From an uncultured Methanosarcinales archaeon (GTDB lineage: Archaea > Nanobdellota > Nanobdellia > Woesearchaeales > ARS49), in assembly GCA_964637115.1 (NCBI GenBank), contig CAZWVL010000006.1, positions 23,696-87,695 on the forward strand: a DNA stretch of 64,000 nt, read 5' to 3'. Positions 32,492-46,598 of this stretch are shown here, piece after piece. A program made the position numbers and the translations under genes. A model generated the notes under the pieces. It was not told where the DNA came from and ran no database searches. It saw only the letters and a program-made list of their open reading frames with translations. How positions within the stretch are numbered: position 1 is the stretch's first letter; the number at the start of each line of letters is the position of its first letter.

Positions 32492-33928
32492 ATGAAAGTC
32501 ATTCTTGCACTCATCGTCTGCTTATTTGCAGCCATAGCATACGCACACGAAGCAGACAACATAATTCACATCACTGACGTAGGGTTTGTACCGTCAAAAC
32601 TGGAAATAGAACAAGAAATGACGGTAGAGTTTGAAAACATTGGCAAGAATCCGCACTGGCCGGCATCAAACATACACCCAACACACGAGATTTATTCAGA
32701 ATTTGACCCGAAAGACGTCATACAGCCAGGAGAAAGCTGGAGTTTTACTTTTGACAAGGCAGGCGAATGGAGATTCCACGACCACGCTTATCCGGAATTC
32801 ATAGGAACAATAATCGTAATTGAGAAGGACAGTTTCCTGAATTCTGTCAAAGGCTTCTTTACAGACATCTTCAAATCGCCGCTAATAACCGCTTTGATTT
32901 TCTGGGACGGTGAAGAAATCAGCCCATACAACGAATCAATTGAAATAACTTCTGAAGACATCTTCCGCAATGACAGCCAGCTTTACTCTTATATCAAAAA
33001 GTTCGGAGTGAAGCAAACAACAGCGTTCCTGCACCAGCTTGAAGGAAAACATGGTGATTGCCATCAGACCGCACACCGGCTGGGCAGATTTGCGTACCAG
33101 TTATACGCCAATGATGTATTCCAGCAATGCTCGATTGAATGCCACTCAGGATGCTACCATGGCGCCATAGAGTATTATTTCAAAGAATACGGCACAACAG
33201 ACATACCAACAGCCCTGAACACGATATGCGGAAACCAAGAAAACGGGTTTTTCGCACACCAATGCTTCCACGGAATAGGCCACGGGCTAATGGCGTGGAC
33301 AGACTATGAACTGCTAGAAGCATTACAAAAATGCGACTTATTGCAAGATGGCAAAAATTCCTGTTACACAGGAGCCTTCATGGAAAACGTTGTTGCATCA
33401 CTCGCAGAAAATAAAAGCACGCACGTAAGCAAATACGTAAATGACGATCCTCAATATCCGTGTTCAATAGTGGAAGACAAGTACAAATGGGACTGCTACT
33501 TCTTCCAAACAGCAAGAATGAAAGAAATATTCAACAATGACTTCAGGAAAGTGGCAGAAGCGTGCGCTGACGCGCCGGAAGCATATCAACGAAACTGTTT
33601 TGAAAGCATGGGAAGAGACATCAGCGGAAATACCATAATGAATGTTGACAAGTCAATAGAACTCTGCCAGTCAGCTCCGCCAAAAGGACCGAGAATCGCC
33701 TGCCTAAAAGGAGCAGTGCAAGACATGTTCTGGGATTCATCAGGACAAGACAAATCACTCAGTTTCTGCAAAAAACTCACAGATTTAAACGAGAAATCCG
33801 AATGTTATAATACAATATTTGAACGAGCGCCGCTTGTAATAAGTTCACAAGAAGAATTGAAAATGTTCTGTGAAAAGGCAGAAGAAAGATATCAAAACTC
33901 TTGCTTAACACAGACACACCTAGAATGA
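32492..33928 (+). CDS. Secreted cupredoxin-like domain plus Cys/His-rich helical repeats
   Basis: Signal peptide, GFVP..L.I, HWPAS..HPTH, FHDH, then CHQTAH, CHSGCYHG, CFHGIGHG. Confidence 0.7.
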   Translation: MKVILALIVCLFAAIAYAHEADNIIHITDVGFVPSKLEIEQEMTVEFENIGKNPHWPASNIHPTHEIYSEFDPKDVIQPGESWSFTFDKAGEWRFHDHAYPEFIGTIIVIEKDSFLNSVKGFFTDIFKSPLITALIFWDGEEISPYNESIEITSEDIFRNDSQLYSYIKKFGVKQTTAFLHQLEGKHGDCHQTAHRLGRFAYQLYANDVFQQCSIECHSGCYHGAIEYYFKEYGTTDIPTALNTICGNQENGFFAHQCFHGIGHGLMAWTDYELLEALQKCDLLQDGKNSCYTGAFMENVVASLAENKSTHVSKYVNDDPQYPCSIVEDKYKWDCYFFQTARMKEIFNNDFRKVAEACADAPEAYQRNCFESMGRDISGNTIMNVDKSIELCQSAPPKGPRIACLKGAVQDMFWDSSGQDKSLSFCKKLTDLNEKSECYNTIFERAPLVISSQEELKMFCEKAEERYQNSCLTQTHLE

Positions 33929-35652
33929 GAATATCACTTGCATTGCTCATTGGAGGCATACTCTCAGGGATTGTTTCTTCAACACTTTATTATTTGCGTG
34001 GTTATCATCATGGAATACTGGGCCTTTTTTTAGCCTCACTTTTTCTAACAGGAGCTTACTTTTTCCTGAAAAGAACAAGAAAAAAATCACGATTCAATAA
34101 ATACGATACTGCAGCAGTCGCAATTTTGCTGCTGATATTTGCGCCACTTTATCTTGCGTTTATTTACACCATTCCATGGCAAGTTGGTTCGGATGAAGTA
34201 ACGATTATGATAACAGAAAGGAATACGATCTATAGAGATAATTTCGATCCTTTTGGAATCAGCTCCTACTTCGGGTTTCCCAGTCTAGTATTTCTAACAT
34301 TTGGGTGGCTAGGGAAGATCACTGGGGGAATTGACTTGTTGCACATGCGAACAATTCACGCTGTCAGTGGACTGGCAGTCATCCTATTGGGTTATTTCCT
34401 GTTCCGAACAGGCCTGTCAAGACCGCTTTCATTTGTTGGAGCAGTAATCCTAGGCTCAAACCACTCACTCCTTGCAATAAGCAGAATGGCAATGAGAGAC
34501 AATACCGGACTTCTCATCGAAGTTGCTGCCTTAACAGTCTTGTTAATTGGACTTCAACGAAAATGCCAATTTTATACTTTTCTAGGAGGACTCATCGCCG
34601 GACTCTCATTCTACGTCTATTATCCAGGCAGGATAACCATAATCGCGTGGTTTGCGTTCTTGGCAATGACTGCGTTATTTATCCGCAAGACCTCATTTAG
34701 AGAATTAACCAAACTAGGCATAATAGCGCTTCTTGGATTTGCCATGGTTGCAAACCCAATCATGCTAGCTACAGTGAAGGCGCAAGATTTAGCACTTAAG
34801 TTTCAAAGAGAACAGCTGCTGATTTTTCCTGAAGGCAGAGAATTACTGAAACCGTGGTATGCAACAAATACAACCTATGAAGGGGTCAAAACTAACATGA
34901 TTTATGGACTCACCGCATTTAACAATGAAGTAGACGACCACGGCTGGATTTACTCAAACTACAAGCACGGCTTTGTTGACCCATTAACCGGAATTCTTAT
35001 CTGGATCGGACTGGCAACAATCTTGTTCGAGTTATTCTCTAAGAGAGAATTGCAAAATATTGAACTGTTGTCAGTGGCAGGATTTCTTATTTTATGGTTA
35101 CTACTAAGCTTTGTCGTGGGCAAAAGCCCCAATTATACACGCCTTCTCGTGATATTACCTTTTGTTGCAGTACTTGTTACCAAAGCCATAGGCACGATAT
35201 CAAATTTCACCAACGCCAAAATAGGAAAATTGCGCGCGAGCAACGTTTTATTCGCATTATTTGTCATAATCATCTTTTTCTGGAATCTGGGAATATTATC
35301 TGATTATGTCAAACGCGTATTTTCTGAAGGCAATGACATAGGCGGAACAGCCAGATACATAGAAGAACGAAAAGGCATTGCGAACTATACTTTTTATTTC
35401 GCGGAGAGCGGTCAATACACATACTATGTCTGGGGTATGAAATGGCACGAGTTTTTTGTTGATCCGACACAACAATCAATAATAATTTCACCAGAATCTG
35501 CAATTGAGTCGATAAGACAACTGCCTTTCACTATTTTCACATCTGAAAGCGGCTGGAAATTGTTTGAAAACCAGACGAGAAACCTTTATCCAAATTTAAA
35601 CATTCAAAACATTAAAGCGGATGGAAGTTTGCTTGCAATAGAAGTACAGTAG
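33925..35652 (+). CDS. GT39-like polytopic glycosyltransferase
   Basis: QVGSDE, NHSLLAISR, PNYTR motifs. ATGA overlap with the previous gene gives start 33925. Confidence 0.8.
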   Translation: MRISLALLIGGILSGIVSSTLYYLRGYHHGILGLFLASLFLTGAYFFLKRTRKKSRFNKYDTAAVAILLLIFAPLYLAFIYTIPWQVGSDEVTIMITERNTIYRDNFDPFGISSYFGFPSLVFLTFGWLGKITGGIDLLHMRTIHAVSGLAVILLGYFLFRTGLSRPLSFVGAVILGSNHSLLAISRMAMRDNTGLLIEVAALTVLLIGLQRKCQFYTFLGGLIAGLSFYVYYPGRITIIAWFAFLAMTALFIRKTSFRELTKLGIIALLGFAMVANPIMLATVKAQDLALKFQREQLLIFPEGRELLKPWYATNTTYEGVKTNMIYGLTAFNNEVDDHGWIYSNYKHGFVDPLTGILIWIGLATILFELFSKRELQNIELLSVAGFLILWLLLSFVVGKSPNYTRLLVILPFVAVLVTKAIGTISNFTNAKIGKLRASNVLFALFVIIIFFWNLGILSDYVKRVFSEGNDIGGTARYIEERKGIANYTFYFAESGQYTYYVWGMKWHEFFVDPTQQSIIISPESAIESIRQLPFTIFTSESGWKLFENQTRNLYPNLNIQNIKADGSLLAIEVQ

Positions 35653-36688: not shown

Positions 36689-36710
36689 GAAAGGCAATAT
36701 ATATACTGGA

Positions 36711-36726
36711 GAATATAAATCTTTTG
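36711..36726 (-). promoter_or_regulatory. Archaeal BRE-TATA promoter
   Basis: Minus strand CAAAAGATTTATATTC about 25 nt upstream of ATG 36688. Confidence 0.55.
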
Positions 36727-36731
36727 CTGCC

Positions 36732-39700
36732 TTACATCTTAAACCGCTTCTTAAGCTTGCTTAATGCTTCATCAAGGCTTGGCAGGGGCTTTGGCTTCCT
36801 AAAGTGCAGTAAAGCAATCATAATCATAATAATAATTAATACGAGCAGGAAGAGCGCGAGCGCCAAGAGGAATCCGCACTTCAAATAGAACATCAACACC
36901 ATCAGGAATACAATGGCAACTATTATCATGATGACCATAAAGCCCTTGCCGCGCTCGTGAGTCTTTTCCTTGCGGTAAATGTACATTCCGCTTGCAATGA
37001 GCAAGATTAGCAATAATGCATTAATCACCCACGGCAGATACAAGCACAAGTTGAATTTCTGCACGACTGTTGCGCAATCCTCTGGACAGGTCTTGGCATC
37101 TTCATCAATACCGCACACGCCATCGCCACACGAGCACGGATGCGGACGCTCCTTGTCAGGAATCCTCTTGCCAACAACCACGATAACGTCACCAGACCTG
37201 CATTTCCTGTGGGAAATATCAACACTCTGACTATAGCCAAGCAAAGCAGCCATTGGGTCGGCTTCTGACTTCTCCCTGTTAACAACCTTGTAAACAAAGT
37301 CTCTAACCGGCCATACTCCTGGCAGCTGGTCGTGCGTCACAGGAACAAACAAGACGTTAGGATCACAATACTTGCGCTCAACATACCAAGCCGGATATGC
37401 GTCCGGAACCTGCACGACACCATCGTTTATCGTCGTAAAGAAGTCCTTGAAGAACTTCTCAACCCACGGATACGTTCTTGTACCAATAACAAGACCATAC
37501 TCTGCCTGCACGCTTGGAGCACTCTCCTGCTTGCCCTTAACCAATAAATCAACAATTTCAGGATGCATGCTTGGAAGACTGAACAATCCCGAAGGAATTC
37601 TCGTGTTCAACATGTAAGCAAAGAAATTATTCCAGGCGCCAAGCAACGGACTGCCGCCAAACGGAGTGCCAATGTAGACAACCTTCTTGGTGAGAGTTGC
37701 AAGAGCAAGACCATTATCTTTTGAATATCTTAAAGCATCCTGAGCAACAAGACCGCCAAAGGAATACGGAACAAGATAAAGTTCGCTGACTCCATCCTGC
37801 AAGAGCGTGGACGAAGCTTGCTCTGCAAGATCCTTGGCTATGCCAGCCAATGGCTGCGTTGGGGTGTAATAATACGAATACACCTTCGAGCCATCATCAG
37901 AAGCCCTATACTCGTGCACAAACTTGTTAACGCTTACGCGGCTTACTGTCAAGCCCTGAACAAATATGACGGCGGTTGAACCGCCACCATCATACTCCTT
38001 AATCAGCTTGTCAGCAACAGACTGCGGATTGTCAATTGACAATACTGCAAAGAGACCAACATACTTGGAACCCTGCTTGACAAAGTACGCCTCAATTGCA
38101 TCAGACGACAAAGTAGCAACCAGCCTGTTTCCAACATGACGACCATTCAAATCAACCCAAACTTCGCCGCTTCTAATGTAAAGACCAGCAGTGGAATCAT
38201 CGACAGGCACGGGAATGCTCAATTCAAGAGTTTCAGGAGATGCAAAATTATCAAGAGTCATGTCAAATGCAGTTACGACCAACATTTCCGGATTGCTTAC
38301 AGGAACAGGGCTTGAAGGATGCTCAACGGTAATGGTCACAGGAAGCAGGATATTATCCATCGTGATTTCCATCGATTGGCCAAGAGTTGTTCCAACGATA
38401 AACAACGGATTCTCTGGAGTTATCTGGCCAACAATCCTTTCCTGAATCAAACGAGTTTCCAGCTGCTCAACGGTGTAGTCCACGTAATCATAACAGTGCG
38501 GCTTGCACTTGCCCGCACCACGCACATTGTATTCTGTTCTAATTTCTTCAGCAGTAAGCGAACGGTTGAAAATCTGCACTTCATCAATGAGACCATAGAA
38601 GTGTTCGGATTCAGGAGGACCCATGCTTGAAGATCCAATGTACAACGGATCCATAGTTGTTGCAATCAATCCATATGCTGACTGATTCTTCTTTAACACG
38701 CCATCAACATAAATCCTGATCATCTCGCCATCATAAGTTCCAGCAATGAAGTGGAACGGTATTTCAGGCGTTGTCTCGATGGGAACAGGAGTTGTAATCG
38801 TGCCATCTCTAACACCTGCAAGAGAGAACTTAATGAAACCAGAATCGGCTGAGAGACTATATTGCTGGCCAGACGCGCTCTTCTGAACAACAACACCATT
38901 TCTCCACTCTTCAGGTTTCACCCAAGCAGATATCGTGATTTCCTCAACAGGATTCAAGTCATACCAGTGCTTGACATAAACATAGTCATCAACACCATCA
39001 AGCTTGAACGCCTTTCCAACGATGCCCCAATCATACGCCAGAGCAATAAGAGTATTGCCTCTAGTACCTAACGACAAGTTTCCGTGATTGAAGCTTTCCA
39101 AATCATTTGCGTGAGCATCACCAGGCCACCAGCTGATCAAACCGTAAGGAGCTTTCATGCACGTGTCACAATCACCGCCAGCATCAGCACCTTCAGCTGA
39201 TTTTGCAAACAACTCATCAGTGGATAGACCTCCACAAACAACACCCTGATCTTCAGATGAGTCAATTGGTGTAGCCGTGTTGCCGCTCAGCAAATACGTT
39301 TCGATGTCAACATAATTGTTCGGCAAGCCCTGAGTAAACTGCAACGGAGTATCTTCGCAGCACGCAGCGACTTCAACAACCGACAACACTTCTTTACTAG
39401 TAACAGTACCCAAAGCAGTTTCCTGCTCAGTTGTAAGAGTGGTAGTTTCAGTGTATTTTGCAGACGCGCACTGCGAAGTACACATGATTCCGGACTTAAC
39501 CGGGTACGTAATCTCCGGCCGAGGAGGTGGAGGTGGGGGAGGCGGAGGCGGACCTACAGGCGGTGGCGGAGGTGGAGGCGGACCTACAGGCGGAGGTGGG
39601 GGAGGAGGTGGTGGCGTAAATGGCTTGCAGAACTGGCAAGATGACTGCATGCCCGGAACAGATTCATCGCAAGTCTCTCCACAATCAAGCTTGCTATTAC

Positions 39701-42700
39701 CACAGCAGTAATTGCAATCTAGACCACAACCAGGAGTACCATCACATATCTCATTCGGACCTTTCTTGCCATCGCCACAAATGCCACACGAACAGTCAGT
39801 ATTGCACGTGCCTACACCTGCGGGCTCGCAGCACTCGCTGGCCTGATTTTGAATTCCATCGCCGCATATCGGGACACGGCACTTGCATTGAAGATTGCAC
39901 TTGCCCTGAACATTATTTATCGTGCAAACGCTTCCCGGAGGCTCGCAGTCCTCGCCAGGACCAAGCTCACCATCGCCGCACGTGCAATCTTCAGGACAAA
40001 TTTCAAAGTTCTCAGGACCTTCGCACACACCATCGCCACACACATAACACTTGCAAGTAACAGTATTACACTTGTAGCCTGTCGGGCACTCGCTATCACG
40101 TTCGCACTCTTCAGGCGACTGCTTTATACCATTGCCGCAATACGGCAGCTTCCACTTGCAATCCTGAGAGCAAATGTAGTCTTCCATAATTGAGCCTGGA
40201 GGATCACACTCCTCACCGTATTCTATCTGGACTTCTCCATCACCACAGAACGGAGTCCTCTGCCTGCAGCCTTCAAAGCAAGTAATTCCATTTGGAGGAT
40301 CGCACTGCTCACCATTTTCTATTTGAGTAATTCCATCACCACACCATTTCCACTTGCAATCCCTGCCGCAATTTCTGCCTTTTTCAGTTGCAGGAGCGAA
40401 CAACTGACTGCCTTCCGGAAGATTGTAACGGTCAGCCGCGCTAAAGATTAATGGCGGTTGGATATTATTGATGTTCGTAACAGTCGGAACAATCATCGGG
40501 ATTGGAACAATACCCGGAGCAGTCGCAAACACATTTGGAATTGGGAAAGTAATTGAGGGCGGCGTGAAAATGTTAACAATTGGATTTGGCAGACGCGTGT
40601 ACTGTTCAGGAACGTAAGTACCAACGTCACATTGCTCACCCGGATCAAGCTCGCCGTTGCCACAGAATGGTGGAACACATCTGCAATCAAAAGTGCAAAC
40701 CGTATCAGCAGAACAATCTGCGACCGATTCCTCAGCAGCACCAGCACCAGGACAGCAATATATGCCTGTGCTTAATTGCGTACAACCAGAACCAGGACCA
40801 ACATTCGGAGTGGTTGGAGCCTGGTAACCAGTACCTGGCAACAAATAACCAGGAACATCAGCTGAGGACTGATAACCAGAACCTGCAACCTGTGCACCAG
40901 TTATTACTCCGCCGGTTGAACCAGACTGATAACCACTACCAGGCACGTTGTAACCAGCAGGACCAGAAGCTTGGTAACCAGAACCTGTAACCACCATATT
41001 CTGGCCAGCAGGACATTGCCCGGGAGGAGTTTCAGCCTCTTCAGCTGTTCCAAGATCGCACTCCTCATCTCCTTCAATTTTGCCGTTTCCGCAATTCTCT
41101 TTCGGACAACATATGGCATCCCAAATAGGATCCAAGGGCTCTTCAATACTGGCAATATTAGTAATAGTATTTGCTATGCAATTCAATTGTGCACTCACAG
41201 TCGGACCAGTCTGGACGACATTCGGCTGAGTGACAAAAGGAACACCAACAGGAGGTCCAAATAACGGAGCGTCTTCTGCACACGGATTTTGAGAGCAGGT
41301 GTTAAGCAAGTTTGTCAGCTGACTCATACATTGACAGGGTTCCAGATTGCACGCTTGGCAATGCTCTGGATCACCAGCAGCATTAACAGGCCCACCAGCA
41401 GGATACTTGAACATATCACATGAAATAGAATTGTCCGCAGAATCTCCCTCAATCACTCCAGGGCCAGATCCTGTCACCATAGAATCGCAATCAGACTTAC
41501 ACTTGCCATCCTCACAATGCATTCCGCCGCCAAAGTTCGGCCCAGTTGCAGCAGTTACAGGATTAACTCCACTGCCACTTAGACCAGCACAATCGCCTTC
41601 ATCACAATATGGAACATCGCAATAGATGATTTCACAGGTGAAATTGCAATAGGGGTCGGCTCCATTGACAGGTCCAGTTCCATATTCACCATTCGACAGT
41701 AATTTACCCAGATGGGGATTTTCGCACTCTTCACACTGGAAATTGCTGTTTAAACATTGAAGTACACCATCGCCGCAATGATTTCTTTCACACGCGCCCT
41801 CATCATTATCTGGGCACGTCTGCTGGTACCATTGAGGGCAAACCAAATTACATTTATTGCAGTCATTAACATACTGGAAAGGTCCTGCGTGAGCTGGCAA
41901 GACGCCTCCATTAACAATCGGTGGACCACCCGCTTTCTCACAATCACAGCATTGCTGGTTACATTCTGCCGCAGCTACACATTCAGGTTGATCATACCAC
42001 GGTCCAGGAGGCGGAGGACATTTATCAGGACAGGGGTTGACAACTCCATCGAAAAACGGACCTGTCGGCTTCGGGTCCCCAACATCTCCACCCACAGTGT
42101 CTTTCAACGGATATTTGCAGCAAGCAGGCTGGGGTGTTGGAGTTGAAGTTGGTGTTTGGGTTGGACCACCGCATTTTGACAAATCTTTCTCACATTCAAT
42201 AAATACATACCCCTCAAGCGGTTCAGGACAATTTTCTTCGTTGCAATCCTGAATCGGGCCTTCATAATGTTCACTACCAGGCTCTTCTCCGGCTGCAACA
42301 AGCTTATACTTGCAGCACGCCAAATCAGGAGTTGCAGTAGGAGTAGGAGTTTCGGTGGGAGTTGGAGCTTCGTAACATTCTTCAGCAGATACGCACGGGG
42401 ATTCAACCGATCCGCATCCCTCAGGAGCGGAAGGACATTCATCAGGACACGGCTCAGCAAGGCCTTCATAACAATACTCCTTTGGCTCAGTTGACTGCTG
42501 ACCAGTGAGGTCATTCCAGAGGGAGCTCAGCCAAGCCCAGAAACCGCCTTCACTCTCCTCTTCAATCTCCTCCTCACTTTCCTTTTCACTCTCCTCTTCA
42601 ATCTTAGGATACCTGCAACATCCTGGCACCATTTCAGTTGGAGTGGGAGTTGAAGTTGGAGTTGAGGTTGGAGTTGAAGTTTCTTTAGGCGGAGGAGGCG

Positions 42701-43817
42701 GAGGAGGCGGAGGAGGAGGCGGACTGACGAAGCATTCACTGCCTATGCTGCCGTCTTCGTCGCCAGACATAAAGTTTTCATTATTGACATCACAGTAAAC
42801 ATCCGCCTCATCGGCACATGATTGCATTCCACCTACTGTGTAATGCGCAGGCTTGCCATCTGCACCACAGCAACAACAACATTCCTTGTTATCATTCTTG
42901 TTATGAACCAGGACGCCTTCAGCAAAATAATTGCGCGTGTCTTCTGTATGAACATTATAGACAGTTACGTCTGCAGGAATTCGCTCGATACTATCGATAA
43001 CGTCAGCTATGGCATCTTTATCCTTCAACACGAATACCAAATCACCAACACTCAAATTCTTTACCGTAACGTAGCCACGAAGCGTGTACACAGGATGTTC
43101 AGCAGTGATGAATATCCGCCTGCCATTTGATGTCTTAATATCATAATAATGGTCTGACCCTCTTACAAAAACATTAACCACTGAAACATTAACCACGCGT
43201 TTGGCTGCAGTATTGTAACCAAGCAATACATCATCAATTACTACATCCTCGATGTTCTTAGTTCCGCCAGCGGTCATAACTTGTGTGCCAGCCAAGAAAC
43301 TACCACCACCAATAGTAATTGTAGTTGGCGGTGGAGGCGGCGGAGGAGGAGGCGGGGGTGGAGGTGGTGAAACAGAAGTTGGAGTAGCGGTAGGAGTGCT
43401 TGTAGGAGTTGAGGTAGGTGTAGAAGTTGGAGTTGAAGTTGGCGTTGAAGTCGGAGTACTCGTAGGAGTTGAAGTCGGAGTTCTTGTAGGAGTTGAAGTT
43501 GGCGTTGAAGTCGGAGTACTCGTAGGAGTTGAAGTCGGAGTAGAAGTAGGAGTACTAGTGGGCGTAGAAGTAGGCGTTTCAGTAGGCGTTGGAGTCTGCA
43601 TCAGCCCAAACACTGGAGGACTTATGACTTCTGGCTCACTCACCTGCGCGCCAGTAATACTTGGAGACGATTTGAAAAAACTTACAATCCAACTAAAGAA
43701 TCTGGAAATAAATCCGCCTTCCAAAGGACTGGATTGTTCTGCAGACACTACAGTCATACTTAGAACTAACAAAGTAAATACAATGGCAACAATACCCACA
43801 AACTTCTCTTTTTCCAC
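36732..43817 (-). CDS. Giant (2361 aa) surface protein: signal peptide, PTST/poly-Pro linkers, Hint domain, Cys-rich CGDG repeats, LamG, alpha/beta-hydrolase, 3 C-terminal TM helices
   Basis: SFLAGT...TAEHP...VHN (Hint), about 12 CG(D/N)G..E.CD repeats, GLISWWPGD...IDEVQIFNRSL (LamG), PYSFGG...DGVV...THD (hydrolase triad). Confidence 0.85.
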   Translation of the reverse strand: MEKEKFVGIVAIVFTLLVLSMTVVSAEQSSPLEGGFISRFFSWIVSFFKSSPSITGAQVSEPEVISPPVFGLMQTPTPTETPTSTPTSTPTSTPTSTPTSTPTSTPTSTPTRTPTSTPTSTPTSTPTSTPTSTPTSTPTSTPTATPTSVSPPPPPPPPPPPPPPTTITIGGGSFLAGTQVMTAGGTKNIEDVVIDDVLLGYNTAAKRVVNVSVVNVFVRGSDHYYDIKTSNGRRIFITAEHPVYTLRGYVTVKNLSVGDLVFVLKDKDAIADVIDSIERIPADVTVYNVHTEDTRNYFAEGVLVHNKNDNKECCCCCGADGKPAHYTVGGMQSCADEADVYCDVNNENFMSGDEDGSIGSECFVSPPPPPPPPPPPPKETSTPTSTPTSTPTPTEMVPGCCRYPKIEEESEKESEEEIEEESEGGFWAWLSSLWNDLTGQQSTEPKEYCYEGLAEPCPDECPSAPEGCGSVESPCVSAEECYEAPTPTETPTPTATPDLACCKYKLVAAGEEPGSEHYEGPIQDCNEENCPEPLEGYVFIECEKDLSKCGGPTQTPTSTPTPQPACCKYPLKDTVGGDVGDPKPTGPFFDGVVNPCPDKCPPPPGPWYDQPECVAAAECNQQCCDCEKAGGPPIVNGGVLPAHAGPFQYVNDCNKCNLVCPQWYQQTCPDNDEGACERNHCGDGVLQCLNSNFQCEECENPHLGKLLSNGEYGTGPVNGADPYCNFTCEIIYCDVPYCDEGDCAGLSGSGVNPVTAATGPNFGGGMHCEDGKCKSDCDSMVTGSGPGVIEGDSADNSISCDMFKYPAGGPVNAAGDPEHCQACNLEPCQCMSQLTNLLNTCSQNPCAEDAPLFGPPVGVPFVTQPNVVQTGPTVSAQLNCIANTITNIASIEEPLDPIWDAICCPKENCGNGKIEGDEECDLGTAEEAETPPGQCPAGQNMVVTGSGYQASGPAGYNVPGSGYQSGSTGGVITGAQVAGSGYQSSADVPGYLLPGTGYQAPTTPNVGPGSGCTQLSTGIYCCPGAGAAEESVADCSADTVCTFDCRCVPPFCGNGELDPGEQCDVGTYVPEQYTRLPNPIVNIFTPPSITFPIPNVFATAPGIVPIPMIVPTVTNINNIQPPLIFSAADRYNLPEGSQLFAPATEKGRNCGRDCKWKWCGDGITQIENGEQCDPPNGITCFEGCRQRTPFCGDGEVQIEYGEECDPPGSIMEDYICSQDCKWKLPYCGNGIKQSPEECERDSECPTGYKCNTVTCKCYVCGDGVCEGPENFEICPEDCTCGDGELGPGEDCEPPGSVCTINNVQGKCNLQCKCRVPICGDGIQNQASECCEPAGVGTCNTDCSCGICGDGKKGPNEICDGTPGCGLDCNYCCGNSKLDCGETCDESVPGMQSSCQFCKPFTPPPPPPPPPVGPPPPPPPPVGPPPPPPPPPPRPEITYPVKSGIMCTSQCASAKYTETTTLTTEQETALGTVTSKEVLSVVEVAACCEDTPLQFTQGLPNNYVDIETYLLSGNTATPIDSSEDQGVVCGGLSTDELFAKSAEGADAGGDCDTCMKAPYGLISWWPGDAHANDLESFNHGNLSLGTRGNTLIALAYDWGIVGKAFKLDGVDDYVYVKHWYDLNPVEEITISAWVKPEEWRNGVVVQKSASGQQYSLSADSGFIKFSLAGVRDGTITTPVPIETTPEIPFHFIAGTYDGEMIRIYVDGVLKKNQSAYGLIATTMDPLYIGSSSMGPPESEHFYGLIDEVQIFNRSLTAEEIRTEYNVRGAGKCKPHCYDYVDYTVEQLETRLIQERIVGQITPENPLFIVGTTLGQSMEITMDNILLPVTITVEHPSSPVPVSNPEMLVVTAFDMTLDNFASPETLELSIPVPVDDSTAGLYIRSGEVWVDLNGRHVGNRLVATLSSDAIEAYFVKQGSKYVGLFAVLSIDNPQSVADKLIKEYDGGGSTAVIFVQGLTVSRVSVNKFVHEYRASDDGSKVYSYYYTPTQPLAGIAKDLAEQASSTLLQDGVSELYLVPYSFGGLVAQDALRYSKDNGLALATLTKKVVYIGTPFGGSPLLGAWNNFFAYMLNTRIPSGLFSLPSMHPEIVDLLVKGKQESAPSVQAEYGLVIGTRTYPWVEKFFKDFFTTINDGVVQVPDAYPAWYVERKYCDPNVLFVPVTHDQLPGVWPVRDFVYKVVNREKSEADPMAALLGYSQSVDISHRKCRSGDVIVVVGKRIPDKERPHPCSCGDGVCGIDEDAKTCPEDCATVVQKFNLCLYLPWVINALLLILLIASGMYIYRKEKTHERGKGFMVIMIIVAIVFLMVLMFYLKCGFLLALALFLLVLIIIMIMIALLHFRKPKPLPSLDEALSKLKKRFKM
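39520..39615 (-). repeat. Poly-Pro (VGPPPPPPPP) coding tandem repeat
   Basis: GGCGGACCTACAGGCGG occurs twice on the + strand within GGA/GGC/GGT runs. Confidence 0.85.
43378..43595 (-). repeat. 12-nt tandem repeat encoding (PTST)n
   Basis: Degenerate 12-mer array containing an exact 53-nt duplication (43429-43481 = 43489-43541). Confidence 0.9.
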
Positions 43818-43960: not shown

Positions 43961-44665
43961 ATGCAAGCAATAATAATGGCGGCAGGAAGAGGAACAAGAC
44001 TACAGCCATTGACGGATACTACTCCAAAAGCAATGCTGCTCATAAATGGCAAACCAATGTTGCAAATAATTATTGAACAGCTAAAGACTGTAGGAATAAC
44101 GGAAGTCGTGATTATAGTAAACTACCTGAAAGACCACATCATCAATTATTTTGGCGATGGCACGAAGATGGGGCTCAAGATCACATATGTAGAGCAGCCA
44201 GAGCTCAAAGGCTCAGCAGATGCAATTGCACGAACAGAACCATACATCAAAGACAAAAGATTCATTGTAATCGCGTGCGATTCATTGTTTGAAACACACC
44301 TGCTAAAGCGTTTGCTCAAACACGACTCACCGGGAGTTTTCACGTGCACAGAAGTAGAAGATGGAAGAAGATACGGCATTCTCGTGACAGAAGGAAAGAG
44401 AGTAAAACAAATCATAGAAAAACCAGAAAATCCACCAACAAACCTGGCAAATCTTAGCGTATATATACTGCCGCGCGAGATATTCAAGGCGTGCAGAGAA
44501 GTCAAACAAGGATTAAGGGGAGAGTACTGGCTTCCAGAAGCAATCCAAATGCTAATCGAACAAGGAATTGTGTTTGAATATGAAATTTGCAGCCACATTC
44601 TAGACATAGGAACGCCAGAACAGCTGCAAGAAGCGCAAATTCTCGCGAAGAAACTGGGGTTGTAG
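43961..44665 (+). CDS. Sugar-phosphate nucleotidyltransferase (RmlA/GlmU N-terminal family)
   Basis: MAAGRGTRL.P...PK, EQPE..GSA, EKP, DIGTPE motifs. Confidence 0.9.
   Translation: MQAIIMAAGRGTRLQPLTDTTPKAMLLINGKPMLQIIIEQLKTVGITEVVIIVNYLKDHIINYFGDGTKMGLKITYVEQPELKGSADAIARTEPYIKDKRFIVIACDSLFETHLLKRLLKHDSPGVFTCTEVEDGRRYGILVTEGKRVKQIIEKPENPPTNLANLSVYILPREIFKACREVKQGLRGEYWLPEAIQMLIEQGIVFEYEICSHILDIGTPEQLQEAQILAKKLGL
44594..44665 (+). repeat. 72-nt direct repeat, copy A (3' end of the nucleotidyltransferase)
   Basis: 63 of 72 nt identical to 46627-46698 by manual alignment. Confidence 0.9.
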
Positions 44666-44667
44666 AA

Positions 44668-45420
44668 GTGAAACTTGACGGCGTATATTGGGACAAAATT
44701 GCTAAAGCACCCTTTCATTTAGACCCTCAAATTGCCAGATACAAACGCGAAGAACACATACGTCTTATTCAAAAATGGGTAGACTTGAGTGGCAAGACCG
44801 TATTGAAAACCGACTGCTATGAAGAAGCAAAAGGCCAGGACTATTTCTTAGATTGGCTCTCCAAAAAGAGCAAATTAGCCACAGGAATGGATATATCACC
44901 ATACCTCATCAGCATGGCCCAAAAAAAATTTAAACGCCTTTCCTTTGTTACAGAAGATGTAAGAAAACTGACATTTAAAAGCAAATCTTTCGACATAATT
45001 ATTTCAAATTCAACCTTAGACCATTTTCCCACATCAGACTTGCGCCTGGCATTAAAGGAGTTTCACAGAGTGCTTAAGAAAAATGGCACGCTTATTTTAA
45101 CGTTGGACAACAAGGACAACCCTTTTTATCATACTGGATATCTCATAAATAACCTGATAAACACCAACCCATACCACCAAGAGAAATGTTATTCACTCAA
45201 AGAAACAACCAAGCTGGCAGAAGAGGCAGGATTCAAAGTAAAAGATAGCACTTCGATAGTCCACGTCATAACTCCCTTCAACAAAATAGCGAAGATGCTT
45301 CCACGGAACATGCTTTTTAGTTATTTTGTAAAAATGTCGCTGAACATTTTCAAAAAATTGGAAACTTTTCCAACTAGGCTTCGTACGGGCTGGTTTATTG
45401 CCGTTCTCTGCACAAAATGA
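44668..45420 (+). CDS. Class I SAM-dependent methyltransferase
   Basis: LKTDCYEEA variant motif I, FDIIISNSTLDHF, LKKNG. GTG start at 44668 inferred (ORF track start 44587). Confidence 0.8.
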   Translation: MKLDGVYWDKIAKAPFHLDPQIARYKREEHIRLIQKWVDLSGKTVLKTDCYEEAKGQDYFLDWLSKKSKLATGMDISPYLISMAQKKFKRLSFVTEDVRKLTFKSKSFDIIISNSTLDHFPTSDLRLALKEFHRVLKKNGTLILTLDNKDNPFYHTGYLINNLINTNPYHQEKCYSLKETTKLAEEAGFKVKDSTSIVHVITPFNKIAKMLPRNMLFSYFVKMSLNIFKKLETFPTRLRTGWFIAVLCTK

Positions 45421-46598
45421 AAACACCATTCGTACATCGGTTGAAAGATGCGCGACACGGATTGCTAGGATATTTAGTGATAGACAGCAAGTTAAACAAC
45501 TCTTCTGCTGGCGGACTCCGAATGGATGCTCACACATCAGTCGATGAATTAAAAGCATTGGCCAGAACGATGACTCTAAAGTATGCCTTTACAGGATTTC
45601 CCTTCGGCGGCGCTAAAGCTGCGCTTCTCTTCGACTCAGAAAAAATTAGCCAAACTGAAAAAAAAGAAGTCATCATAGCAGCAGGAAAAGCGTTGTCATC
45701 TTACGTTAAAGGATACAAATACATGATTGGAACCGATTTAGGAACAACTCATGAAGACATAACTTTGCTTCTCAAGGCAGCAGGAGCTCCATATAACATC
45801 AAAAATAACAGGTCTGAATTCTATACAGCATTAACGCTTTTTCTTTTTGCCGAGCGAGTCTCACAAGAAATAAACTTAAATCTTCGCACCGCCACGGTCG
45901 CAATCGAAGGTTTTGGCAAAGTAGGCTCTAACGTGGCAAAGTTGTTCGCTGAAAAAGGAAGCAAAATTGTTGCAGTCTCAACAAGCGAAGGCGCGATTTA
46001 CAAGAAAGAAGGTCTTCCAGTATCAAAACTGATTGAACTGCGAAATAAGCATGGCTCGCAATTTGTCAACCACGTTCCGGCTCAAAAGATAAGCAAGGAA
46101 GAATTGCTAACTTTACCTATTGACATTTTGTGCCCCTGTGCAAAATCGTGGAGTGTGCATGAATTGAATGCTCACAAGATAAAAGCCAAACTGGTTGTTC
46201 CTGGAGCAAATATACCCCTTACAAAAACGGCTGAAGAAATCTTGACAAAAAGAGGAGTTACCGTCGTGCCTGATTTTGCAGCAAACTGCGGAGGCGTACT
46301 CTCCGCACCCATTGAAAAGTTGGTTCTATCGCAGGAAAAAACTGAAGCTATAATCAGAAAAGAATTCCTAAAGAAAATCGAGAAAGTTCTGCGGGTAGCA
46401 AAGGAGAAAAAACTCAGCTTGCCAAAAGCCGCACTTGAAATTGCCATAAATAATTTTGACAAGGCCAAGGCTGATGAAAAGAAGATCAAAAGTTCTTTTT
46501 ACCGAATGTGTTTAGCCTGGCTTAGGAAAGGAATTGTACCCAAGTGGTTCATTCGGTTAGTGGGGCCTTATTACGTCAAATGGAAATTGCGCCATTAA
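45417..46598 (+). CDS. Glu/Leu/Phe/Val dehydrogenase family protein
   Basis: GGLR, MTLK, GGAKA, EGFGKVG, PGAN, PDFAANCGG motifs. Confidence 0.9.
   Translation: MKTPFVHRLKDARHGLLGYLVIDSKLNNSSAGGLRMDAHTSVDELKALARTMTLKYAFTGFPFGGAKAALLFDSEKISQTEKKEVIIAAGKALSSYVKGYKYMIGTDLGTTHEDITLLLKAAGAPYNIKNNRSEFYTALTLFLFAERVSQEINLNLRTATVAIEGFGKVGSNVAKLFAEKGSKIVAVSTSEGAIYKKEGLPVSKLIELRNKHGSQFVNHVPAQKISKEELLTLPIDILCPCAKSWSVHELNAHKIKAKLVVPGANIPLTKTAEEILTKRGVTVVPDFAANCGGVLSAPIEKLVLSQEKTEAIIRKEFLKKIEKVLRVAKEKKLSLPKAALEIAINNFDKAKADEKKIKSSFYRMCLAWLRKGIVPKWFIRLVGPYYVKWKLRH

Follow-up and report, generated by a model that had tools for sequence, protein, structure and literature searches.

The window analysed here, a stretch of 64,000 nucleotides from contig CAZWVL010000006.1, carries at 36732..43817 on the minus strand a gene (P0001) encoding a giant protein of 2361 amino acids (aa); every feature of the protein given below lies on this strand (-). 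The gene is a single intact open reading frame (ORF) with a GTG start and zero internal stops, and it is the only long frame at 36732-43817. Given its length and the G+C content of the DNA (40-48%), this frame of 2,361 codons is not a chance product. The source genome (1.27 Mb, 27 contigs, 98% complete) was taken to be that of a DPANN archaeon, an assignment that holds since the genes adjoining the giant gene have 81-90% identity to their counterparts in a Ca. Woesearchaeota metagenome-assembled genome (MAG). A sigma-70 promoter and terminator scan gave results no better than those for shuffled sequences, the model not being applicable to archaea.

Logan contigs from two sediment studies, four runs in all, were used to check the assembly. 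The giant gene is tiled by a contig that covers 36700-39782 and a second that covers 39565-43458, and the joins along it are identical in all four runs; X7 and X8 provide the more independent support, as X1 and X2 may be the source samples. A look-up of the runs that contain the stretch gave none from RNA. At the poly-Pro site (39474-39594) run X1 shows a two-allele strain bubble with flanks alike. The TPTS array at 43452-43541 is bridged solely by short unitigs (31-mer overlaps), and its copy number is uncertain. This array, together with the fact that both congener genes are broken at contig ends, would suit a pseudogene or an assembly in which low-complexity repeats had caused a chimeric join. 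However, contigs from the two studies overlap and span most of the gene, the depth on either side of the array is equal in all four runs, no stop interrupts the 2,361 codons, and the congener protein P0002 is collinear with the giant protein from aa 477 to the end. Between aa 1046 and the C-terminus the two proteins share 53% identity, with the transmembrane (TM) block among the best-kept stretches. An artefact of this kind is extremely improbable, and the locus does encode one polypeptide.

The N-terminus is a Sec-type signal peptide (aa 1-26, 43740..43817), recognised from its sequence as a MEKEK n-region, a 19-residue hydrophobic core and VSA|EQ, with cleavage presumably after VSA; no prepilin-type [KR]G site occurs in the signal peptide region. 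At the opposite end, hydropathy and the AlphaFold2 (AF2) model agree on three long TM helices (aa 2257-2279, 2293-2313 and 2316-2338; 36804..37049) with a loop, YRKEKTHERGKG, followed by a basic cytoplasmic tail of 23 aa (36735..36803). Under the positive-inside rule, the K/R-rich loop and the tail are assigned to the inside. In the predicted topology some 2,230 residues follow the Sec signal on the outer side of the membrane, and the three TM helices lead to a short basic tail within. A preliminary description of this gene had called its product an adhesin-lectin-esterase chimera. As anatomy the term is fair, since every part that it listed was found: the signal peptide, Pro/Thr stalks, a Hint domain, Cys-rich repeats, a LamG domain, an alpha/beta-hydrolase and the C-terminal helices.

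The last ~900 residues constitute a module made of a small domain, a beta-sandwich, a lipase/PGAP1/DUF676-like hydrolase, a CGDGVC knot and the TM helices. Its first conserved piece lies, with a disordered linker, at aa 1434-1560 (39138..39518; predicted local distance difference test, pLDDT, 50-85), the columns of alignment A2 placing the motif LPNNYVDIE...CGG at aa ~1490-1530. The beta-sandwich (aa 1790-1930, 38028..38450) is all-beta, modelled by AF2 with a pLDDT of ~90 and conserved in both alignments, A1 and A2. Alignments and fold together define the alpha/beta hydrolase at aa 1940-2190 (37248..38000), with the motifs IFVQG, PY-S2019-FGG, N-D2132-GVV and T-H2162-D. It is followed by a small beta piece and the aligned CSCGDGVCG...CPEDC knot (aa 2191-2250, 37068..37247). 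The AF2 model of the region (pLDDT 85.7) shows the beta-sandwich, the alpha/beta-hydrolase domain and the three helices.

The putative catalytic residues are well conserved. None of Ser2019, Asp2132 and His2162 varies among 21 long relatives, and across 42 members the conservation of each is at least 90%; the three follow the order of a nucleophile elbow (Sm-x-Ser-x-Sm), an acid and a histidine; the Cys, Gly, Glu, Pro and Asp residues of the knot are likewise invariant in the 21. From the alignments the family consensus reads LVHGL...HSLGG...GTPNxGSP...NDGIV...THTEL. A Foldseek search gave at least 500 matches with E≤0.001, and nearly all of the 50 listed are alpha/beta hydrolases, headed by the esterase BlEst2 and continuing with other lipases, esterases and thioesterases. 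BlEst2 is also matched by the family profile (E 8e-14). Between 24 and 28 of 42 family members match Abhydrolase_6, DUF676, DUF7379 or PGAP1 (E 1e-7 to 1e-9, none dominant), LCAT and Lipase_2 are matched by family members as well, and the look-alikes of the hydrolase in the Atlas are DUF676 and Lipase_2 clusters. With BlEst2 of Bacillus licheniformis (PDB 6wpx/6wpy) and the PGAP1, DUF676, Lipase_2 and DUF7379 families the domain shares its fold, an adjoining beta-sandwich and the succession in which oxyanion loop, nucleophile elbow, Asp and His come along the chain. These are, however, small secreted or endoplasmic reticulum enzymes, whereas the domain of the giant protein is fused between an ectodomain and the knot with its TM helices; identity to them is 13-19%, and the giant protein falls below the family cut-offs.

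We searched for relatives of the module with aa 1770-2250 as query against 1.8 billion representatives. There were 222 representatives at 50% identity (186 at E≤1e-10). They measure 262-7,646 aa, and the match is close to the C-terminus; in the signal-bearing proteins, of 500-7,646 aa, the module stands ~100-190 residues from the end. A hydrophobic signal opens most members at the N-terminus, and most also carry a CxCG(D/N)GxC knot, with one to several TM helices past the match. Like the family as we define it, the giant protein has the sandwich, the Ser-Asp-His hydrolase, a CxCG(D/N)GxC...CPxDC knot, at least one C-terminal TM helix and a signal. The module was detected in 63 of 201 sampled genomes of the order (~50 at E<1e-20), in large ORFs throughout, and the source genome contains it once. 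A sample drawn at the level of the phylum gave 44 matching genomes out of 301; all 44 belong to the same order, and among them are 20 of the 24 genomes from the window's own family. These tallies take in three unpublished genomes (G132, G359 and G360), the removal of which shifts the counts by one or two. The named carriers, listed by a scan with the CxCG(D/N)G(V/I)CG knot motif only and hence biased towards knot-bearing relatives, are all Woesearchaeota/Nanoarchaeia MAGs, which does not suggest an architecture common in free-living taxa. Some are labelled 'Methanosarcinales', and the label 'uncultured Methanosarcinales' is unreliable because one such record sits in the window's genus.

The ectodomains preceding the module differ between lineages. 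Full-length orthologues from the same family measure 2,489-3,756 aa. The domains present in them are Beta_helix, FG-GAP, NosD and Phosphodiest/Sulfatase; their CG(D/N)G units are few, and none of them has a Hint domain or a Pro/Thr array. Among 5.8 billion proteins the ectodomain of the giant protein was matched by the partial congener protein P0002 alone, searches with the N-terminal half returning P0002 and otherwise unrelated Hint proteins only. The combination of parts, which the preliminary description did not recognise as a characterised architecture, is thus shared with a single partial protein. The giant protein is a genus-specific version of an order-wide family of Woesearchaeales surface proteins, and a literature search not covering all journals found no description of this hydrolase-anchor family; nor did it find anything relevant on DUF7379 or on lipases in DPANN archaea.

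In two same-family relatives the open frames that terminate in the module reach 8,477 and 8,713 aa (G210:C5:51521-53113 and G217:C7:15920-17488), which places them among the largest archaeal ORFs. The CGDGVC...CPxDC knot and TM segment also occur at the end of hydrolase-less ORFs of 600-930 aa (e.g. G148:C6, G078:C6, G099:C16 and G189:C45), so that this pair looks like a general membrane-proximal anchor element of the order.

Near the N-terminus of the giant protein, aa 173-306 (42900..43301) form a Hint domain of 134 aa of the bacterial intein-like (BIL) type. On this segment Pfam returned Intein_splicing (PF14890; E 1e-14, 55 bits) and PT-HINT (8.6e-10), and the NCBIfam intein N- and C-terminal models matched as well. 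Among solved structures the nearest is that of a bacterial intein-like domain (2lwy), with an alignment running from end to end over residues 4-138 (E 3.5e-8). All class 1 catalytic positions are present (S173, T238-A-E-H241 and H305-N306), but the +1 residue is Lys307, which excludes canonical splicing. A canonical class 1 intein was accordingly rejected, the flanks moreover being poly-Pro/Gly and CCCCC low-complexity sequence and not a housekeeping site. The polymorphic-toxin PT-HINT arrangement, in which a Hint immediately precedes a short C-terminal toxin domain and an immunity gene comes downstream, was rejected too, as the Hint occupies aa 173-306 in a chain of 2361 and what comes after it are structural repeats and a TM anchor; neither Pfam nor NCBIfam detected a toxin domain in the giant protein.

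The closest likeness is to the A-type BIL domains (Amitai et al., 2003; 2lwy), which are mini Hints of ~135 aa within secreted, variable proteins, with an N-terminal nucleophile, TxxH and HN. The giant protein has the block A, B and G residues of this type, no Cys, Ser or Thr at +1 and an exported, Cys-rich host protein. In BIL domains without a +1 nucleophile the products are mostly cleaved (PMC7664689), and by analogy cleavage rather than splicing would be expected here. The Hint differs from the A-type domains in having an archaeal host and Ser instead of Cys at the nucleophile position, and in the recurrence of the +1 Lys. Similar Hints were found in 34 of 201 genomes of the order, with only one in the source genome. 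Among 11 loci fetched from the order one is an ordinary intein (HN|C) and ten lie in exported Cys-, Gly- or Pro-rich proteins, seven of these ten having Lys at +1. The literature search, which did not cover all journals, found no description of BIL-type HN|K Hints in archaeal exoproteins.

The Hint ORF of genome G124 also terminates in the hydrolase module. The mini Hints at loci L015-L025 of the same order start with C|F..GT and end in VLVHN, mostly with Lys next, and that of L018 lies ~75 residues into its open frame, directly after a signal-like segment.

The esterase is membrane-proximal, ~40 residues from the first TM helix, and its module is kept across relatives with unrelated ectodomains, which argues for a task on or close to the membrane of the cell itself. 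We regard it as moderately probable that the giant protein is a self-anchored surface protein, with a proximal esterase near its own membrane and a self-cleaving N-terminal tip. In such a protein the poly-Pro, TPTS and Cys-repeat segments would hold the LamG and Cys-rich ligand-binding parts tens of nanometres from the cell, while the hydrolase would remain only a few nanometres from the membrane of the archaeon itself. At that site it could remove ester-linked acyl groups from lipids or acylated glycans nearing that membrane, supplied by a tightly apposed partner cell, by particles or by the cell's own envelope, a role of salvage or remodelling rather than of distal attack. After folding, the Hint would process itself by an N-O acyl shift at Gly172-Ser173 and cyclisation of Asn306, severing from the body a 146-residue tip composed of an aromatic amphipathic segment and the TPTS stalk; less likely, the two pieces would be re-joined by aminolysis.

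Several observations weigh against this reading. The giant protein's own hydrolase scores below every Pfam cut-off (best DUF7379, 12.6 vs 33 bits, E 0.13), VQG takes the place of the HG found in the oxyanion motif of most relatives, and 12 of 42 family members also touch a peptidase-type model (Hydrolase_4, S33). Ligand or lectin binding by the LamG domain is a prediction from its fold only. No Hint was found in 150 representatives of the hydrolase-module family, so that the domain may be a recent, dispensable insertion, and none was found in the two congener genomes, an absence that carries no weight since contig ends cut off the 5' ends of the genes there.

The preliminary description had gone further and proposed a device for host attachment and envelope breaching, in which the stalk and lectin parts bind a host and the esterase breaks open that cell's acylated wall or its membrane of ester lipids. 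In favour of this are the lipase-like character of the hydrolase and its complete triad; such an enzyme would leave archaeal ether lipids untouched, and aromatic amphipathic segments towards the tip could touch membranes. Furthermore, DPANN giants with LamG and enzyme domains have been proposed as tools of host interaction (SPEARE, PMC6642349; murein-hydrolase giants, PMC8204110). However, no other part of the ectodomain comes as close to the cell's own membrane as the esterase, and the LamG domain, a Pro-rich spacer of ~31 residues, ~1,100 Cys-rich residues and the Hint all lie between it and the tip, which fits poorly with a distal weapon. The module also ends proteins with unrelated ectodomains, Pfam revealed no murein hydrolase or pore-forming domain, and no accessory genes are conserved across 30 family loci. 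Host attack by the esterase is on these grounds unlikely.

The same membrane-proximal position would also suit an enzyme of envelope maintenance, a housekeeping esterase, deacylase or peptidase that remodels the cell's own glycans, S-layer or lipids beneath an ectodomain serving mainly as a coat. The presence of the module in most genomes of its own family, mostly in single copy, is in keeping with such a function, as are the genes for a sugar nucleotidyltransferase and a PMT_2-type glycosyltransferase among the neighbours of the giant gene and the action of PGAP1 and DUF676 relatives on membrane-bound acyl groups (Pfam descriptions). Against it stands the fast turnover of ectodomains between lineages, which is expected of proteins that face other organisms, and the glycosylation genes are not conserved beside the family gene; we consider a purely domestic role rather improbable.

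Lipid genes elsewhere in the source genome provide an ester-lipid lead in favour of the self-anchored protein with its proximal esterase, and they also enter into a further, more elaborate scheme. The genome encodes a CDP-archaeol synthase (CarS, G000:C2:94684-95178) and two PlsC-type acyltransferases (G000:C2:140309-140668 and G000:C2:88831-89262), the PlsC family being without a match in four archaeal control genomes, and a PcrB-type geranylgeranylglyceryl phosphate synthase was not found in it. This set fits the bacterial fatty-acid and lipid genes reported in Woesearchaeota (Castelle et al., 2021; PMC8204110). The family might serve to acquire acyl or ester lipids from a bacterial partner, the ectodomain docking, the lipase-like domain stripping acyl chains or lysolipids that PlsC re-uses, and, in this genus, the Hint releasing a membrane-active tip or transferring it in a Hedgehog-like manner. 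We put this forward as a speculation that is quite improbable as a whole.

Turning to the remaining parts of the self-anchored protein, the LamG domain (aa 1607-1759, 38541..38999) matches Laminin_G_3 (PF13385) with 87.1 bits against a cut-off of 27.6 (E 1.7e-24) and is modelled by AF2 as a jelly roll. It is inserted in the module in this genus only, between the LPNNYVDIE...CGG piece and the beta-sandwich, and was found in one other of 42 short family members. A second AF2 fold, of aa 1436-1800, has moderate confidence outside the LamG domain and a ConA-like jelly roll within it. Foldseek matches to clostridial neurotoxins were discounted, as they concern the jelly-roll subdomain of the binding domain, a generic ConA-like fold with no toxin-specific meaning.

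The Cys-rich part of the ectodomain falls into three regions. Four units of ~60 aa, starting with CC(K/R/D)(Y/C) and separated by PT linkers, occupy aa 400-680 (41778..42620; regular expression and by-eye alignment) and occur elsewhere only in the congener protein P0002. Next, at aa 681-1051 (40665..41777), comes an irregular Cys-rich region, evident from the sequence, which contains a Gly/Tyr stretch of the SGYQ type as well as two CG[DN]G units; Pfam found no match in either of these two segments. A motif search then located nine CG(D/N)G...E.C(D/E) units at aa 1052-1399 (39621..40664). In total there are 12 CG(D/N)G units (11 strict CG[DN]G and one CGNS variant), compared with a mean of 0.11 and a maximum of 3 in composition shuffles, and the E.C[DE] part is present in 8 of the 12. 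The number of repeats given in the preliminary description, about 12, was therefore accurate. Its likening of them to myxobacterial or DUF4215 repeats stands at the level of motif resemblance and not of membership, as both models scored below their cut-offs (DUF4215, 9.6 vs 27 bits; TIGR02232 myxo_disulf_rpt, 14.0 vs 20.8). With these families the units share a tandem arrangement of CG(D/N)G-x-E-x-C-(D/E) followed by two more Cys, but their lengths are irregular and two of them are of the CGDGVC...CPEDC knot type.

The stalks and spacers were read from the sequence. The mature protein starts with a tip containing the aromatic amphipathic segment EGGFISRFFSWIVSFF (aa 27-62, 43632..43739), which leads into a TPTS stalk, a P14 run and TTITIGGG (aa 63-172, 43302..43631). 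Tandem Repeats Finder placed the TPTS array at 43375-43595, with a 12-nt period and ~16 copies. After the Hint come KNDNKE-CCCCC, a small Cys-rich piece, a P12 run and a PT linker (aa 307-399, 42621..42899), and a poly-Pro spacer, P9-VG-P8-VG-P10, separates the Cys-rich repeats from the module (aa 1400-1433, 39519..39620). Besides EGGFISRFFSWIVSFF (aa 34-42, 43692-43718), a second aromatic amphipathic segment, EGGFWAWLSSLW (aa 424-437, 42507-42548), has the same start, EGGF, and is preceded by an acidic run. Both segments may be membrane-active. None like them was present among 260 related proteins checked.

In its overall plan the giant protein resembles the SPEARE proteins of Nanohaloarchaeota (Hamm et al., 2019; PMC6642349), which are also giant, mostly extracellular DPANN proteins with a near-C-terminal TM anchor. 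Besides an enzyme domain, these contain one or more laminin-G domains and further parts of adhesion type, and in them, too, a variable ectodomain is joined to a conserved anchor end. No sequence relation was found between them, and SPEARE lacks a Hint and a Cys-repeat stalk. The conserved part of SPEARE is a cytoplasmic type III restriction-enzyme region, whereas the tail of the giant protein has 23 aa and no such Pfam domain, and the enzyme of SPEARE is a serine protease in place of an extracellular alpha/beta hydrolase. With the murein-lytic-transglycosylase giants of Woesearchaeota and Pacearchaeota (Castelle et al., 2021; PMC8204110) it shares the lineage and the form of an exported giant with a hydrolase. 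Unlike these, it is esterase-type with a conserved anchor module of its own, and Pfam detected no SLT or NlpC domain in it. The giant protein shares the plan of both groups and none of their conserved parts.

The family bears on how DPANN archaea hold partner cells and obtain membrane material from them. To our knowledge, no Woesearchaeote has been cultured with a host. The family provides a well-delimited target for experiments in the form of a membrane-proximal anchor with a serine hydrolase, which is conserved while the ectodomains are swapped between lineages and is present in most genomes of one Woesearchaeal family. If the enzyme acts on ester lipids, it would provide a connection to the bacterial-type lipid genes of these archaea. 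Moreover, 'bacterial' BIL-type Hints, usually with Lys, in exported proteins of an archaeal order would widen the range of this self-cleaving domain and supply new self-processing modules. If neither activity holds, the giant protein is one more large lineage-specific surface protein.

Downstream of the giant gene, after a gap of 34 nt, lies P0260 (35657..36697, -), a gene for a protein of 346 aa whose sequence has a Tat-like SRRAFLG N-terminus. A copy with 70% identity stands directly after the giant gene in a congener, and no homologue was found in 200 other genomes of the order. P0260 has no Pfam match, and the Atlas gives Tat-signal look-alikes only; despite the SRRAFLG motif, TatC was not found in the 98%-complete source genome. 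A role for P0260 as a lipase foldase was considered and found to be without support. Across the 30 family loci there is no conserved neighbour. Paired ORFs of ~100 aa follow the family gene in 5 of these loci (L034, L035, L038, L039 and one more).

Compared with the congener locus L026 (JAWCRZ010000013), the window differs in gene content and order. The genes for a cupredoxin-like protein (32492-33928) and for the PMT_2-type glycosyltransferase (33901-35652) are absent at the congener locus, as are a methyltransferase and a Glu/Leu-dehydrogenase gene, which in the window (44587-46598) stand between the nucleotidyltransferase gene and a DUF1385 gene. The orientation of the block from 31300, where an ORF of 271 aa lies, up to the giant gene is reversed between the two loci when the nucleotidyltransferase gene is taken as reference.

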